This document shows, piece by piece, positions 41,669 through 52,473 of a DNA stretch of 52,473 nucleotides. A model generated the notes under the pieces. The model was not told where the DNA came from, did no database searches, and was given only the letters and a program-made list of their open reading frames with translations. The stretch comes from Elsinoe ampelina (lineage: Eukaryota), in the NCBI GenBank assembly GCA_010093995.1, contig ML992510.1, forward strand, positions 633,504 to 685,976. Direction: 5' to 3'. How positions within the stretch are numbered: position 1 is the stretch's first letter; each line of letters begins with the position of its first letter. Position numbers and translations under genes: made by a program.

Positions 41669-42310
41669 GATGTGCAATCAGCGCCGCGAGCGCCAGATGA
41701 TGATCGAATCCGAGCTCCCTTGTCTGATGCAGTGTCCGTCAACAAAAGACAGAGAGATGCGCCTCAAAGTGGTGTACGTGGGAAAACCAAAAGTCGAGTC
41801 CCTGGCGTCGTGTACGGAGCTCCCTTGGTGATCCCTGGCAGCGCGCCTGAAAGCTCTCCGAAAGATATTACAACAAGGTCAAAGGGAAAGCTCCAGTCTC
41901 CAATGTGCGATTGACGCGCTGGGAGATGGGCGAAGGGCAGAATCGGATGGGAAAAGAGGACAGGGTTACGAGTCGTGGATGAAAAAGAAGGGAGTGCCTG
42001 TTAGCAACAGCAGCTGAAATGCAAGAAGCTGATGAATTTCTTGAGCCAAAAGGGCATAGCTCGAGCTTGATGCGGCGCCAGAAAAGCGTCAAAGGAGCAA
42101 TCGACCGGTCCGAACCCGCTCGCTAGTGCGGAAAGTGAAGAAAGGGGTCTCCGACACGTGTACTTCTTGAATATGTCCAGCAGCATGGCTGTATATTGAC
42201 TGGTTCTCAAATATTTCTATAGCTTCTTCACCTTTGAAGTATATGCACGCCGGCTGCTCGTCAATTAATCACCATCTCATCTCCCCCCCCACTACCCCTA
42301 ACACCATCCT

Positions 42311-44161
42311 CTAGTGCTCATCATCGTCCGCTATCCTCTTGTACTTCCCACTTCCCGCCCCATTCTTGTCACCTGGCTTGCCCTTCTTGACCAGGTTGCT
42401 GATCCAGCCTCCCACCCCCTCGCCTGCTTCCCGTCCTTTGCTGACATTCTTCTTCGCCTCAACACTCGCCTCAGGTGGCTCGAGATCCATGTCCGGTATC
42501 TGACTATCCTGGTTCTCATCGCCAAGGCGGAACGAGGGTACAGGCGAACGGCCGCTGAAGAAGGATTCCGCTTCTGCAATCTGCTGCGGCGTGGGTGCGG
42601 CGGTAGTGGCGTCCCCGAAGAGCGAGTTCATATCTTCGAGACGAACATTTGCCGTCTCCGGGTAGATGAACCATACTGTGAAAATGTTAGAGATGCAATC
42701 TTGACATTCGATATGCTTCCATGACTTACCAACAACGAATGACACAGCGCAGAAGAATGCGTGAAGTAGATACAACCGCCACTCGATCAACTCCTGCAAG
42801 ATAGGAGTCATCTCGCCGACCAACCAGTTAAACGCCCAGTTGGAGGCCGTTGACAAACTTGCACCCTTTGCACGAATGCTGAGAGGCAAGATCTCGGGCG
42901 GGTAAAGCCAGGGAATAGGACCCCAAGAAGCACCAAATGCGGCGTTGTAGATCATGACGAAGATGACTACCATGGTTGGTGTGATTGAGATCTCGAGGAA
43001 GATGAAGTAGGCGATAAGCGATAACGAGATGATCATGGCGATGGCTCCCCAGAGTAAGATCGGTCGTCGTCCTAGTCGATCGACCAGGTACCAAGGTGGG
43101 ATCGTTGAAGCCAGATAGGTGAGCGAATTGATACCAGTCATGAGAATGGCGTTGCGACCAGTCCATCCTGCTTGTTCGAAGACGAGCGGTGCGTAGTACG
43201 AAATTACGTTGATACCGTTGAGCTGAGCAAGTGCTTGGGCGGACATGGCGATGAAGACCCGCTTGTAGTACCGCTTGAACATGTCCTTGTATGTCCTCTC
43301 ACCCTCCTGACGCTGTAAAAGTACGTTCATCTTGATCTCTCGGTATTCGTCGCGAGCGTCGGGGTTGTGGATGTCACCCTTTCCGTAGAGATTAGCGATA
43401 ACCACAATGCCCTCCTCGTCGTGATCGTTGTCAAGCAGCCATCTGCGGATAGTTAGTAACTGTCGCTCGAACTTGTGCTCGATCATCCTCACCTCGGCGA
43501 TTCCGGAATCAAGAAACTTCCTACACCCAGCAGCCCACCCATGATGCACTGCATGAGCAATGGTATCCTCCACGACCAATCGCTCCCAATATAGCTGCAA
43601 AAGTAATCCACCCAGACACTAGCAGCATACCCCGTGATGTTTCCCGTAAACTCGATGCAAGCCAATTTCCCTCTGTTATGCGGCGGAGAAATCTCGGACT
43701 GATAGACGGGCACAATCGTCGACAGAGCACCCACTCCCAAACCAGCAATGATCCTACCAACAAGCATCATCGGCATACCAGTAGCGAAAGTCTGAAACGC
43801 TCCTCCCACGAAGAACACAATCGCACCATACAAGATTGTCTTCTTCCTCCCGAGAATATCCCCTATCCTGCCCACCACCAACGACGAAATGAAAGCTCCC
43901 ACCTCCAAGATCGCCACCATGGTCCCGATCTCGGCTCTCGTAGGCTGATGGAAATAATCCTTGAAAAACGCGCCCCTGGTCTCCGTCAGCAATCCATCGT
44001 CCACTCATCCAGACGATCCATCCTCACGTGATAATCCCCGACATAACACCCTGATCATACCCGAACAAAAACACACCCAACGACACAAACACGCTGGTGA
44101 AATAGATCAACTTCTTCCCGTGCAAGCCATGAATACGACTCGATTCATCCGTCGGCGCCAT
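42311..44161 (-). CDS. MFS sugar porter (monosaccharide transporter), AUG-initiated form; frame stays open upstream to 45004
   Basis: LFGYDQGVMSGII, VPVYQSEISPPHNRG, PESPRWL, AQLNGINVISYY, SWGPIPWLYPPEILP, YPETANVRLE; introns 43976-44027, ~43444-43492 and ~42677-42729. Confidence 0.9.
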
Positions 44162-45726
44162 GACTGCAGCGAGCAACCTATGCCCTAACCCAACTGGATC
44201 ACGTTTCGGGTTCGGTATGACAATATCCTCTTTGCGAGTGACTTTTTTGTTTCCTGAACCCTTCTCGCCCGGGAGATACCTCACGCTCTTGTGCTTCTTC
44301 CTGCTCTTCTCACCGCGAGGTTGGAGCTCGTATGCTTCCCCGTTGCTGCCTCGCGTGAGCGGATCTTCTTCGGCCGCGAGTTGGTCGACGAGGTCGCCTG
44401 TGTCGCTCCAGAGGCTAAAGTCGCTGCCGGCTGGGGATGGGGTGCGGCGTGCGGCGCCCGAGATCTCGCTGTGGCTGCTGTCCCAGCTGTGGCCGCGGCG
44501 GTGGAGGCCGACGCGTTTCTCGTCGAGGGAGATGTCGCGGTGGGTGCTGCGGCTGGTGCTGCCCCCTTCTGCGGTGGTGTTGCTGTTGCTGTGGCTGTTG
44601 CTCGCCCGCGACGACGAGGACAGGGCGTGCAGGGGGATGGTTGCGGGCGTGCGGTCGTGGTGGGAGGCGGTAGAGTGAATCTTGCCGGTGGTTAAAGGTA
44701 CGGTAGGCAGGGTGTGGCTCCCGCTGCCCTCCGTTGGTGGTTGGGTTGGGGGGAGTAGGTGGTTAGATAAGGGGAATTGTGAGGCAGAGCCGCGGGACCG
44801 GAGTGCGGAAAAAAAGCTTCTGTCTGCTGACGTGCCTCTCGGTCGGTCGGTGGAGGTCGAGGGCTGGGAATGAGTGACCCTGCAGGTTGAGCTAGTAGAG
44901 CTGGCGGAATGGAGAAATGGGAACGAGAACGGAGAGGACGAGGCTAAGGGAAGCCAATTGCGTAGGTTGTGAAGAGGAAGCTGGTCGAGCGTGGTCAAGG
45001 CAGGTCAGAAGTGGGTCCCTCTATCCGTCCGCCAGTCGATTCCAGAGAATCCGAAAGATACGGCCAATTGGCGTGTGTGTATCACAAGCGAATGCAAGCT
45101 GATCCACAAAGAGAATTCTTCTCGTGTACAAATGTCCGTATAGGTCAAATTGTAGGTGCCGCGATGCTGCAGCAGGGAATATCATCTGCAAAAGGTATAT
45201 CCAGGGTTCTACTGAGACTGCCGTATCAGCCGCAAACACTTCTCCGTCGGTCATCAAACTGCTGAAACACAGCACAATCTTCTACCTTCAAAACCTTGCT
45301 AATTTGCTTCTTCCCACTTTTATCTGGCGGTCTGCAGGCTGCTAGTATCTAGTTTGTGTCTAGCGTTGATGGCCACGAGTCGGTGAGGCTCGCGATCTCG
45401 GATTCAAGGGAAGACGTCATGGGTTTCCCCTCGTGGTCAATTTGGGAGCTGGAGGGGATCACGAGACGATTTGCTAATATTTATGGATCAGCAGAGTACA
45501 GTGCACAAGACAGATACATGTCCCGCAAGTCAGCAAGTATTTACACCTGTCAACCCACCGGAATGCTTCATGCTCCGAGTCCAACGAGTGCCGTAAACGA
45601 ATAGGTATCTATTCATGCTCACCCAAAACCAAATATGCATCTATTCTATCCCAAAACCAACGCAATGCAATTCCATCCATAACAATCATCCCATACCGCT
45701 CCTCCAATACCCAAGCCCCCCAAACC

Positions 45727-48700
45727 TCACACATCCACCAGCTTCTGCTCCCCTTGCCCCCCCTGCCCTCCACCACCCCCCATCATCCCCACCTTCCTCA
45801 CCATCCTCCCAAAATACATCGTCACAAAACTCTCCGTGAAATACTCATGCTGACTCCCATGCTCCGCCACCAAATTATGCGCCAACTCATGACACAACGT
45901 AACCCACCAATACACGGCCGCCTCCCTCTTACGCTCCACATCCCTCTCGAACCCATCCCAATGCAGCTGCAAGAAGAACCTCAAGTTACAAAACAGTGAC
46001 CCGTTGCTGTTGAACGCTATCGAGCTGCCTGTTTCGTTGTAGAAGATGTGTAACGACTGGGGCTTGAGGAGGAATACGCTGCCCACGTCGAGGAGCAGGA
46101 CGGCAAAGGCGCGCACGGCTGCCGCGTTGTTGCGGAGGAAGGCGTTGCGTTCGTCTTGGCTGGAGCCGCGGGAGAGGAAGATCTTGATGCCGGGCTGGCT
46201 GTCCGCGACGAAGGTGAGGTCTTGGCCTGGGCGGGAGTCGCAGAAGGAGGATTGTTCTTTGATTTCTTGCGTCGAGGGTGGGGAGAAGACGCTGCCGGAG
46301 TCGTGGGCACGGGAGGCGTGGATGGCGGAGACGAGATTCTGCTGTAGTTGGTGGGGTGGTGTGACTTGCTCTGGACCTTTGACCTTGGGTTGGAGGGCTT
46401 GTGTTTCTTGCTCGGAGTAAGGTGGTGGTGCGTCGGGCTTTTTAACAAGAGAATTGCTGGCTTGTCCGCCGTGGTCTGATGGCCCTTCATCTGCGTCATT
46501 GTTCAAGCCAAGCTGTCTGGTGAGGTTTGAGAAGAAGCTCTTTTGTCCCTTAGACTTGGGTCGCAGTGCCATGTTCGGCTGCGTGGGGCTACTGTTGAAC
46601 GCCCCAGGCATAGACGGCACTGGATCATGTTGCTCCTGCTTAGCGGCCGCCTCAATAGGTAGCGGCGTCTTTTGCTCAGCTTGTGTCTGCTTCCATCTAC
46701 GCTCTTCCTCGGCCATCCTCTCCTGCTCCTCATCCATCTGCCGCTGTCGCTCAGCTTCAGCGATGCGCGACTCTGCCGCCTTCTGACGCAGGATACGATC
46801 GACGTTGTAGCCTTTGGTCTTCAATCTACGAAGATCACTCTCCATGATCATCTCCAGAGCCAGATAATCCTGCTGCTTGGGACGCTTCAGAAGCAGAGGC
46901 ATGATTGCCCGACTGACCTCGTAGAGATCTGCCTTGGCGGTAATATACAGTGTCGCGTCCTTTGCCGTATCTCTGTGCAGCGCCGCAGTCATCCGCTCCG
47001 TGTGTGATGCATTCGTTCCGCGTAAAGTCTTCCTCAGCGTCAATGAAGAAGTAGCCTTGACCTGCAAGACCTTCTCCATCCAGCGTGCATCGTGACGGAC
47101 AGCATCAGCCGTATGATCGTGGAGGAACAACCGACATCGCTCGATAATGAGCTTTCTATACCTCTCGGCAACAATCTGGTCCTTCAGTATCGGACCCATA
47201 CTCTGGTTATTCTCAACCATAGATCCAAGCCAAGGGGTACCGAGCGAGCCATAGAAGCTCTCCAGAACCTCTTCCTGAGGTGCAGCCAAGAGCTTGTCCT
47301 TGAATAGACGATAGCTGACATAGTCATCCACAAGCACAATACTCGACGAAGAAGCGAGTGAGTACTCCTTGATAGCTGACTCGTCTTCGTCCATATCGTC
47401 ATCATCAGCAACCTTCGTGCTTGCGGTGGACGAAGATGACACTTCCCTGACAGCGATCAAGCACGTCGCCCGCTTCATGCTTGCCCAAAGCGTCTTGTCC
47501 ATCTTCAGGCCCTGGACATTCTCCGCCAACCTGCGCAAGAGACTGAGATACTTATCTGCCCCCAAAGTATTGAGCAGCCTCGCCGGTTCTTTGACAATCA
47601 TCTGTGCCAGCTCGACAGCATTGGGCTCGTGCTTTGATCCAATCTTGAGCAGAAACGTATTCGCCTCGGAACCAAAGTCGACAAAGTCAAAGATCTCGCC
47701 GTACGTCTGACCATCACCGAGGAAACAAGTCCTAGGAGCTGCCATCTTGAATCCAGTATCCTTTTCAGACTTGATCACACGAGACTTGACAGGCACGATT
47801 GGCGCAGTGCCCAGCCGCTCTGCCAGATTCCCAGATGCACCGATCTCGTTAATCCTGCCTGCGAAGTAAGAGAAGACGACTTTCGCATCTGCCTTGTTCC
47901 GTGGCGGCTTCTGCATGAGTCGTTCAGCGCAAACGTTGATTGGTGGATCTTGCTGGACACCCAGGATGGACGCCTGTGCATGCAGGTCTTCTCTCAGGAT
48001 GTCAAAGCCAAGAACAGCGCAGCCTCTGTTAGTGAAAACGCTCCCTGGCGTAGAAAGACGGGATAGATCTTGGCCTGCCAGCGGCAAGAAAGGTACCGTG
48101 ATGCTTTCGATTGGGAACCTACGGTAGCCATTCGGATAATGATTGGAGATAAAGTAGAGCATAGCATTCTCGTACAATTTCGCATCGCCACTCTTCGCCG
48201 CCCTAGCCATAATGTCTACTAGTTCCGGAACAGTCGGGTAAGACTTCAGCCCCAGGAACTGTAAGAACTTGGCCTCCGGACTGGCAAGCCTGAATGGTTC
48301 TGGCCAGTAGAGCAGCTGCAGTCCGAGATCTCGCAGAGGCGCCTTGGGCTCGAATAGATCAGACACTCGGTACAGCCCTGGCGTCTTACCGCCTTTCTGT
48401 TCTGCAGGACAAATCGGTGTCTTTCGAAGCTTGTCGATATCTGCAGCCGGAATGTCGTCGCGGACAGAGACCAGGTACTTGATCAGATCCATATGACTCC
48501 ATTTCGTTCCTTGCGCACTGTCATCTTTGGACATGAGTCGATCAAAGACGACTGAGAGCTCCACAGTCTTTCTCACACCAAGTGCAGAAAGAAACTTCTC
48601 CTTGGTGGCCTGGAGGCCGTGGATGGTGGCTAGGTCATCGAATAATCGGACCGAAGCAAAGTAGGACTGATGTGGTTTCCTCATCCCCAACGTGGTCGGA

Positions 48701-50988: not shown

Positions 50989-51274
50989 TGCTGCTGGGAT
51001 GAGGGCCCGTTCAGAGGTTGCGAAGGATGCCTAGGTCGTCAAGATCTATAGCCTGGGCGAAACGCAGCCGGACGCCATGCTCGGGAAACGCTTGAGAAAA
51101 GGATGGCCGGAAGACAAGGAACTCCGCGATGAACAAAGGCAAAGTATGCAAGTCTCTGATCAAGAAAACAAAGGAAGCAGATGGATGAAGGCAAAACAGT
51201 GAAAAGATGCAAGTGGCGGAGCTTGCAGCGTAAGGTAACCATTATTTGGCCGCATCCCTGTCATAAGGCGCGTG

Positions 51275-51534
51275 TGTTGACTTGTGTAGGGGAGGAAAAA
51301 GGATTGATTACTGCCTGATCCACCAAACTGAGGTGGATTGTAACTACATAAATACTTAACCTAACAAACTAAAAGATAGCTAAATCAAAAGAACTCCTTA
51401 ATAGCAATAGATTAAGACAATAACTATTTAATTTGATTATAAATTAGTAGAGTAGTGGATAAGTATTTAGTTCTACTAGGGGATAAACTAAATTAGGGTC
51501 CTTCTTAGCGCTCTAGCTTATACCTTAGTTAATA
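51275..51534 (-). repeat. Putative 3' LTR (~260 bp) of the Copia element
   Basis: On the minus strand a purine tract AAAGGGGTG (~51543-51535) is followed by TATTAAC (RIPed TGTTGAC). The other end is TGTTGAC on the plus strand at 51275, giving the TG...CA terminal inverted repeat. Confidence 0.65.
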
Positions 51535-52473
51535 CACCCCTTTACTAAATAGCTATAAGGCTGTTATAGCTAGTTAGTAGACTACTAACTTAAGGGATAG
51601 CTATTATAAGAAGGTCTTATACCTTTTAGATAGTAATAACTTAGTTAATCTATTAGCTAAGGTGTCTACTAATAGTGTCTATATTACTAAGATAGGGCTA
51701 GATAGATCTCTAGCTAGATTAATCTCTTGTCTTAGCTAGTGATAATAGATATTAATATAATAAAGGCGTGTATTAAGCTTCTTAATTAGATTAGTAATAA
51801 GGCTAATTATTTGCTAATTGTTACACTAAATGCTAATATGCTTAAGGGGATAGATAGAGGCTATTAGCCTCCTCTACTACATAGCTTGCTTAGTAGTCTC
51901 TATAAGAGTAAGTAATTCCACTTCTATACTTAAGGTTATAACTATTAGCTACTTAGTAGCCTTCTAGTTAATTAAGCCTTAGAACATCTTAAATAGATAG
52001 CCTTAAAGGCTCTTCCTTAAAGGGTAACTACTAAAGCTAGTATCTAATAAGGCTTAGAAAATTAGAGGTAGTATTAAACTATTAAAGGTAAGAGCTATAT
52101 CTTTAGTTTTATAGAGATACTAAATTACTCTATTTGCTAGTCTCTAGTAAGTTAGTAATAGATTAGTTAAGTGCTTTAATAATCTAGAAGTAGTAAAGGC
52201 AATATTAGGCCTTATAATAACAGCTACAAAGTTAATAGATCTAACCTTCTACTAGTATAGGTAGATCTCTTATAGTAATACTTAGCCTTTATAAGGCTAG
52301 AGTATCTTAATTAGAAGTAGTATTAATATTGGCCTTATTAGCTCTATAATAAACTTACTATATATCTACTATATGTACTAGGCTTAACTAAGCTAGAGTC
52401 TCTTTATTAGTCTATCTCTTATAACTTAGATAGCTAGAAACTAGCTTAGATCTCTAAGTACCTTTATCTTATA
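51275..52473 (-). mobile_element. RIP-degenerated Ty1/Copia LTR retrotransposon (RT-RNaseH 3' part + 3' LTR; truncated by the window edge)
   Basis: Abrupt AT-rich, TpA-rich tract. Minus-strand relics: Y**KVRSINFVAVIIRPNIAF (de-RIP YQQKVGS..TRPDIAF, ~52195-52257), CNN*QII (CDNQQTI), TRLYYINIYYH*LRQE (TRLRHVDIHHHWLRQE, 51724-51771), ANRLTKLL (ADGLTK). Confidence 0.9.

Follow-up and report, generated by a model that had tools for sequence, protein, structure and literature searches.

Conserved near-cognate start codons that give rise to N-terminal extensions are established in fungi (PMC5487733; PMC7049704; PMC7214817). As reported for Neurospora crassa cpc-1, an in-frame extension is initiated from conserved near-cognate codons that include AUU (Ivanov et al., 2017; PMC5487733). 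The peroxisomal isoform of 6-phosphogluconate dehydrogenase (PGD) in Ustilago maydis is described as starting at AGG AUU (Kremp et al., 2020; PMC7214817), and the mitochondrial isoform of arginyl-tRNA synthetase (ArgRS) in Cryptococcus as starting from an AUU in the context cccaccAUU (Wallace et al., 2020; PMC7049704). In structure-assisted non-AUG initiation (START), according to the account given in PMC11165317, RNA structures lying downstream from the start codon, at +14 to +23, stall the scanning complex. Here we describe a sugar transporter gene of Elsinoe ampelina encoded on the minus strand of a 52,473 nucleotide (nt) stretch of contig ML992510.1 (assembly GCA_010093995.1, positions 633,504 to 685,976), hereafter the window, in whose coordinates all positions are given. 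We consider it likely that a long isoform of this major facilitator superfamily (MFS) sugar porter is initiated at AUU 44680 and that leaky scanning to AUG 44161 yields a shorter one. An earlier sequence-only reading of the window had proposed a non-AUG N-terminal isoform of the transporter; this interpretation is partly supported, being right in kind, while the start codon and the length of the extension are corrected here to ATT 44680 and 173 codons.

The region upstream of the first ATG of the transporter is devoid of alternative AUG codons. On the minus strand between 45500 and 44100, ATG occurs only at 45420, 45254, 45185, 44161, 44148 and 44130, which bears out the earlier statement that no ATG is present in any frame from 44162 to 45182; the full ATG-free stretch extends from 45184 to 44162 (1023 nt). 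The sequence-only reading had put the expected number of ATGs at about 16, which holds for a uniform base composition; with the actual composition, 2000 mononucleotide shuffles of this stretch averaged 9.6 ATGs, and every one of them contained at least one. The transporter frame is open from 45004 to ATG 44161, as previously noted, and is bounded by a TGA stop; the peptides quoted in the sequence-only reading were also found in its translation.

We mapped assembled RNA sequences (Logan contigs; four runs from three studies) to positions 42000-46500. In all four runs the contigs skip 42676-42729, 43443-43492 and 43975-44026, and therefore stem from spliced RNA. From 44027 to their 5' ends, which lie at 44885, 44889, 44947 and 44953 in the respective runs, they are collinear with the genome, with neither mismatch nor joint, and a low-depth RNA piece spans 44924-45098. 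Assembled contigs carry no information on start sites or strand and do not define the cap site; the collinearity of the spliced contigs nevertheless places the whole conserved tail in the mature mRNA, and transcription does not start near 44161. No upstream ATG exon was seen joined in the spliced contigs of the four runs. Two of the three observations that the sequence-only reading had named as telling against itself, a transcription start close to 44161 and a spliced-in upstream ATG exon, were not made. The Pfam family Sugar_tr (PF00083; cut-off 22.3 bits) matches exon 2 (E 8e-39, 134 bits) and exon 3 (E 9e-50, 170 bits) of the gene and gives 356 bits with the orthologue P0002, and the orthologue core matches the solved sugar porters STP10 (E 4e-50), GlcP, GLUT3 and XylE. 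These matches indicate that the gene product is an MFS sugar porter.

Several lines of evidence indicate that the extension is real coding sequence, as had been proposed. A search with residues 100-326 of the open frame against proteins of more than 572 amino acids (aa) returned 581 matches at E<=0.001, of which the 120 best were examined. The named matches in this listing come from Dothideomycetes and lichen fungi and are sugar porters about 700-770 aa long, with E-values down to 3e-53; many of them span 92-100% of the query part. In an alignment with eight orthologues, the blocks PA.IPLH, S.FSLWSDTGDLVDQ, DPL, V.Y and K..I.IP.P are invariant, as is the Met encoded by ATG 44161, which is followed by HGLHGKKL.YF and the first membrane helix. 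Scanning metagenome contigs with this eight-orthologue alignment gave 80 loci, 10 of which end before the N-terminal region or lack the anchor motif, leaving 70 that were used. The tail itself matched no Pfam family, and an ESM Atlas search with it gave no informative neighbour (best score 0.81). It could be argued that the extension is untranslated and that its conservation reflects an RNA-level function of the long leader, since the hairpin part of the leader (see below) is conserved at the nucleotide level. We find this scarcely credible: the frame is open from the first conserved codon to the internal Met, in phase with the transporter over 130-173 codons, in all 60 loci where the Met was located, its length differences are divisible by three, and synonymous codons are found at conserved residues.

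The conserved frame begins at ATT 44680, which lies in frame 173 codons upstream of ATG 44161. The first conserved codon of the orthologues, specifying the Ile of the motif K/T/N-I-P-S/F, is ATT in 66 of the 70 loci, ATA in three (L005-7) and ATC in one (L002). When 53 unique leaders are aligned, neither the ATT nor the A at −3 varies, and C at −4 is conserved in at least 90%; the A at −3 is found in 56 out of 56 unique loci. As a control, other Ile codons in the same extensions are distributed as ATC 203, ATT 61 and ATA 91, and those of the invariant Ile of PANIPLH as ATC 47, ATT 5 and ATA 4. Since ATT is fixed while other Ile positions vary, the constraint acts at the nucleotide level, as expected of a start codon. 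An in-frame stop is present 5-183 codons upstream of the Ile codon in 68 of the 70 loci (median 26.5), the other two reaching the contig edge, and it lies within 15 codons (5-15) in 15 of the 68. None of the 68 loci that have such a stop contains an in-frame ATG between it and the Ile codon.

Upstream of the ATT, the leaders of the orthologues share a strongly conserved element of the form GGAG-N-GGGCTGCTCC-N4-CAGCC. It lies 28-35 nt from the ATT, at spacings that represent all three mod-3 classes (24:15:11 in 50 unique leaders), and several loci have in-frame stops within the element or behind it; the motif is missing from four further leaders, that of the window included. Downstream of the ATT, lengths vary but are always in phase. 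Coding conservation therefore starts at the ATT, because the upstream element shifts frame and holds stops whereas the downstream region stays in phase. One frame of the element reads as a pseudo-peptide, 'WSRAAPxQP', which we rejected as coding: it corresponds to the hairpin read in a single frame, this frame varies relative to the ATT and it contains stops in several loci. Eight loci represent spliced transcripts with an uninterrupted frame of 695-723 codons from the ATT, and three of them, paired with genomic loci (L019/L070, L010/L028 and L035/L042), are collinear through the leader, with the downstream introns removed.

The sequence-only reading had suggested TTG 44998 (G at −3), ACG 44992 (A at −3) and CTG 44710 (A at −3) as start codons. 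All three are indeed present in frame and have a purine at −3, the open frame extends as far as 45004 and one low-depth contig reaches 45098, so that translation might start further upstream in this species, with the ATT being a mere conserved Ile. We regard this as distinctly unlikely. None of the three codons is conserved and the orthologues lack coding conservation upstream of the Ile codon, where the region shifts frame and stops can lie as close as noted above; the main contigs end downstream of TTG and ACG; CTG 44710 is located inside a predicted stem; and an Ile retained for the amino acid alone would be expected to use ATC or ATA like the other Ile positions. The long form therefore probably starts at none of these codons. 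The stop that bounds the frame is 281 codons upstream of ATG 44161; the earlier figure of 279 codons was counted from TTG 44998 and is not supported, the conserved start giving 173 codons.

Public gene models of the orthologue group are in disagreement at the 5' end. Although 95 of the 120 listed matches carry PANIPLH, the annotated start is placed anywhere from 4 to 440 residues upstream of this motif. The sequences that precede the conserved part are mutually unrelated among the listed models, 18 of the 120 have a first residue other than M, and several are fusions with neighbours (Pfam PF00443, PF08610, PF03641, PF12271) or marked partial. Such disagreement is what predictors that require an ATG would yield where there is none. 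In many models a short N-terminus with an ATG is indeed attached immediately ahead of the conserved block, as would be the case if an exon with an ordinary ATG were spliced onto the extension and initiation were canonical, and the contigs do not prove the 5' end. However, we consider such an exon very improbable, given that the contigs of the four runs contain no joint upstream of 44027, that the spliced orthologous transcripts are collinear through leaders of 121-490 nt with in-frame stops before the ATT, that the model N-termini have the irregular features just described and that no conserved AG acceptor precedes the ATT. As a separate observation, several NCBI records name the transporter 'Ribulose bisphosphate carboxylase large chain', and in others it is fused to a neighbouring ubiquitin hydrolase, Pex16-like or lysine-decarboxylase-like gene (misnamed or fused records include P0006-P0008, P0025, P0028, P0037, P0043, P0052, P0068 and P0104). 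Both kinds of record look like mistakes of annotation passed on from genome to genome.

The ATG desert is shared by the orthologues. In the window, no ATG occurs in any frame between ATT 44680 and ATG 44161, and the corresponding distance in the orthologues is 381-519 nt. A total of 55 unique extensions (23,550 nt) contain only five ATGs, of which three are out of frame and the others represent one in-frame case in two loci; the expected numbers are 138±10 from codon shuffles and 243±15 from mononucleotide shuffles, and stretches of the same length just downstream of the 55 extensions contain 477. We suggest that such a desert is the signature of leaky scanning giving two isoforms. Among 56 unique loci, the base at −3 of the internal ATG is A in 36 cases, G in 12 cases and C in 8 cases (purine in 48), and the base at +4 is G in 48. 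Because ribosomes that pass the AUU reach AUG 44161 first, the tail-less isoform is the expected second product. Alternatively, the AUU product could be the only functional protein, ATG 44161 specifying an internal Met and the desert preventing wasteful out-of-frame starts; the C at −3 in eight loci would fit such a scheme, as would the location of the Met within the conserved peptide LAAVMAP, where it may be kept for the protein. We think this unlikely in view of the AUG-free path through leader and extension and the prevailing context of the internal ATG, and since the short product starts approximately 20 residues before the match to solved porters, which is a normal N-terminus for the family.

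As no AUG is available, the locus is best explained by initiation at a non-AUG codon combined with leaky scanning to AUG 44161, and on this point we concur with the sequence-only reading. In the mechanism that we propose, 43S complexes would scan a leader that is free of AUG and, in this species, at least 273 nt long, and go past the leader stem-loop. Part of them would initiate at the AUU with Met-tRNAi, giving a transporter with a 173-residue, Ser-rich and presumably cytosolic N-terminal tail. The remainder would scan 519 nt that are free of AUG in every frame and initiate at AUG 44161 (G at −3, G at +4), giving a tail-less transporter of 564 aa whose N-terminus lies about 20 residues ahead of the first membrane helix. 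We infer that AUU is the codon in use and that both isoforms are made. The tail may regulate trafficking, turnover or activity of the transporter, and the sensor-like function ascribed to it in the earlier reading would likewise be conceivable.

The conserved upstream element can pair as GGGCUG-N8-CAGCCC. In the 53-leader alignment, 87% of cells pair, compared with 27-50% when the partners are slid. In a seed of 40 of the 48 unique leaders, from which divergent ones were omitted (L003, L013, L014, L023, L030, L038, L041 and L079), 95.8% pair compared with 26-52% for slid partners, and four of the six pairs are changed on both sides; 0 of 500 shuffles reach the observed pairing values, although relatedness inflates shuffle tests of this kind. 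The 3' end of the stem has a median position of −15 relative to the ATT (38 of 53 between −11 and −18) and the 5' end a median of −34, with a loop of 8 nt in 29 of 53 leaders. Single-sequence folding (n=52) gave a mean of −12.3 kcal/mol (z −1.46) for the interval −48 to −8, compared with −4.8 kcal/mol (z −0.07) for +6 to +46 and −4.6 kcal/mol (z −0.11) for −98 to −58. A covariance model, R1, finds one site per locus at the homologous place, nine non-seed loci included, and no second hairpin copies in 222,797 nt. The window has a stem-loop at the same place as the orthologue hairpin, with a core of GGCAG/CUGCC (44728-44724 and 44710-44706), but its sequence is divergent and it lies about 10 nt further from the ATT. 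An Rfam 15 search of 44100-45750 returned only a chance-level match to H19_3 (E 0.41, 20.7 bits against a gathering score of 46).

Two further features of the orthologue leaders may be mentioned. A conserved GGAG is located just 5' of the hairpin and a conserved CUCC in its loop (columns 9-12 and 21-24 of the seed alignment), the latter being absent from the window; pairing between the two could replace the main stem, giving mutually exclusive folds. In addition, 18 of 56 listed leaders contain a minimal upstream open reading frame (uORF) consisting of an AUG and a stop directly after it (caATGt), 119-166 nt upstream of the ATT (L017, L018, L019, L021, L025, L032, L052, L053, L055, L056, L057, L059, L060, L063, L074, L075, L077 and L078), three of these loci being spliced transcript contigs (L017, L019 and L032). 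It does not occur in the window and looks like a conserved start-stop element of one subclade.

The 48S complex is reported to contact mRNA at −9 to −14 and at approximately −17 to −20 (2026 preprint, 10.64898/2026.05.12.723742), and a role for the hairpin at the exit side of the 40S subunit is therefore conceivable; the hairpin may influence start choice. More tentatively, and with more doubt than confidence, we propose that the AUU, its extended context and the covarying hairpin constitute a dedicated start-site selector that sets the commitment to AUU or AUG, with the mini-uORF as a further layer in one subclade. The hairpin ends about 15 nt upstream of the AUU, where mRNA leaves the 40S subunit and meets eIF3, and it would be the hairpin, or a factor bound to the conserved CUCC loop, that sets the fraction of complexes committing at the AUU. 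If this is so, control over the proportions of tailed and tail-less transporter would be exerted at translation, possibly with sugar or stress as the cue.

A number of points weigh against the interpretation of the locus that we favour. The orthologous loci are related and the counts given for them are not independent events. Four of the 70 loci have ATA or ATC in place of ATT, and the base at +4 after the ATT is C rather than the preferred G. In the window the frame is open for 108 codons upstream of the ATT and CTG 44710, with its A at −3, is only 10 codons upstream; a slightly longer product starting from this CTG is possible in the window species, as is, with little likelihood, the splicing of an exon to a point within 44954-45004. 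Considering the C at −3 of the internal ATG in eight loci, the short isoform could lack importance in some of the fungi. With respect to the hairpin, RNAalifold detected no consensus pairs in the 53-leader alignment, and at E<=1 the R1 model had no match in the window or in L002, L003, L005, L006, L008, L013, L014 and L015. Lastly, the case is known here from the comparison of sequences and from assembled RNA contigs.

The residue that follows the proposed start is of some interest. In most orthologues the second codon, directly behind the ATT, specifies Pro (CCN), with C at +4 in 52 of 56 unique loci and C at +5 in 59 of 62 loci; the window has His (CAC, 44677-44675). Removal of the Met would leave an N-terminal Pro in the orthologues, which recalls the Pro/N-degron of glucose-regulated yeast enzymes.

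Table 1. Coordinates of the transporter gene and of its proposed translational features in the window.
Feature	Position	Strand	Remarks
Proposed initiation codon ATT (AUU)	44678..44680	minus	context ggcaagATTc; A at −3; AAG directly before
Conserved internal ATG, proposed start of tail-less isoform	44159..44161	minus	context gcagtcATGg
ATG-free zone, all three frames (leader and extension)	44162..45182	minus	
In-frame stop TGA bounding the open frame upstream	45005..45007	minus	
Leader stem-loop of the window (predicted)	44700..44734	minus	−54 to −20 relative to ATT; RNAfold −18.6 kcal/mol
N-terminal extension, 173 codons, Ser-rich	44162..44680	minus	orthologue alignment, protein search
Extension block PATIPLH	44647-44627	minus	
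Extension block SDFSLWSDTGDLVDQ	44425-44381	minus	
Extension block EEDPL	44371-44357	minus	
Extension block KSVRY	44290-44276	minus	
Extension block RKEDIVIPNP	44236-44207	minus	
Long-isoform coding region (proposed)	42311..44680	minus	737 aa; stop TAG 42313-42311
Exons of long isoform	44680-44027, 43974-43493, 43442-42730, 42675-42311	minus	
Introns (GT..AG)	44026-43975, 43492-43443, 42729-42676	minus	skipped in RNA contigs of 4 runs
Short isoform (proposed)	from ATG 44161	minus	564 aa
Main spliced transcript contigs	42295..44953	minus	Logan contigs, 4 runs

A co-oriented open frame of 1767 codons ends upstream of the transporter at 45727 (stop 45727-45729), and the space between it and the transporter frame is 45726-44162. 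In run X1, one RNA contig (45125-45743) extends across the stop of this upstream gene and continues for about 600 nt; it is probably the 3' end of the upstream gene, which may thus be long and leave less than 200 nt before the transporter leader. At the other end of the transporter, a long C-terminal tail follows the last membrane helix (42311-42660, minus strand), in which the blocks GGWISN.VK..K and GKYKR...D. are kept in all aligned orthologues. Elsewhere in the window, the GC fraction is 0.37 at 51001-52000 and 0.49-0.65 in all other 1-kb segments.

The feature appears to be shared by dozens of related fungi, in which standard annotation has missed or mis-modelled it. Public models of the orthologue group are unreliable at the 5' end, and pipelines that require an ATG will keep making the same error. 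With this locus, the few fungal genes that have a deeply conserved near-cognate start come to include a membrane transporter. Its comparative signature is unusually clean, consisting of one codon, fixed as ATT, followed by an AUG desert of 380-520 nt, so that the locus is well suited as a model of start-codon stringency in filamentous fungi. Furthermore, a pair of isoforms of which only one carries the 173-aa tail, with its conserved motifs, suggests that regulation of the transporter is under translational control. Literature searches turned up no paper describing a fungal sugar transporter with a non-AUG start, supplementary gene lists (e.g. those of PMC5487733 and PMC7049704) lying outside the searches, and the main text of PMC5487733 mentions no transporter. 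The alignment to solved porters begins no earlier than about 17 residues past the internal Met, and none of these porters has an N-terminal tail of 130-173 aa.

The closest parallel is with cpc-1, in which, as described in PMC5487733, an extension upstream of the main AUG with A at −3 was likewise detected comparatively in Pezizomycotina. According to the same account, cpc-1 has several competing near-cognate codons and two AUG uORFs, and the AUU site is conserved in only 74 of 100 species, in part of them as AUC or AUA, whereas the transporter has a single site, conserved to the extent described above, and an AUG-free path to the next AUG. The products also differ, cpc-1 being a bZIP factor and the present one a membrane transporter, and cpc-1 is experimentally backed while the transporter is known here from sequences. 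The Ustilago PGD gene resembles the transporter in its dual isoforms and in having the AUU directly after a second near-cognate codon, which is AAG in the window. However, the PGD extension, as described, carries a type 2 peroxisomal targeting signal (PTS2), whereas the tail of the transporter has no recognized targeting signal or Pfam family and belongs to a polytopic membrane protein. In Cryptococcus ArgRS, as in our proposal, an AUU in strong context is reported to give the N-terminal extension and leaky scanning the shorter form (PMC7049704); the ArgRS extension is a short mitochondrial presequence, in contrast to a 173-aa tail with conserved linear motifs and a hairpin upstream. Finally, the locus has in common with START, as set out in PMC11165317, an RNA structure at a fixed distance from a weak start codon. 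It departs from the structure-assisted model in the location of this structure, as the region from +6 to +46 shows no excess structure and the conserved hairpin of the transporter leaders lies upstream of the AUU.

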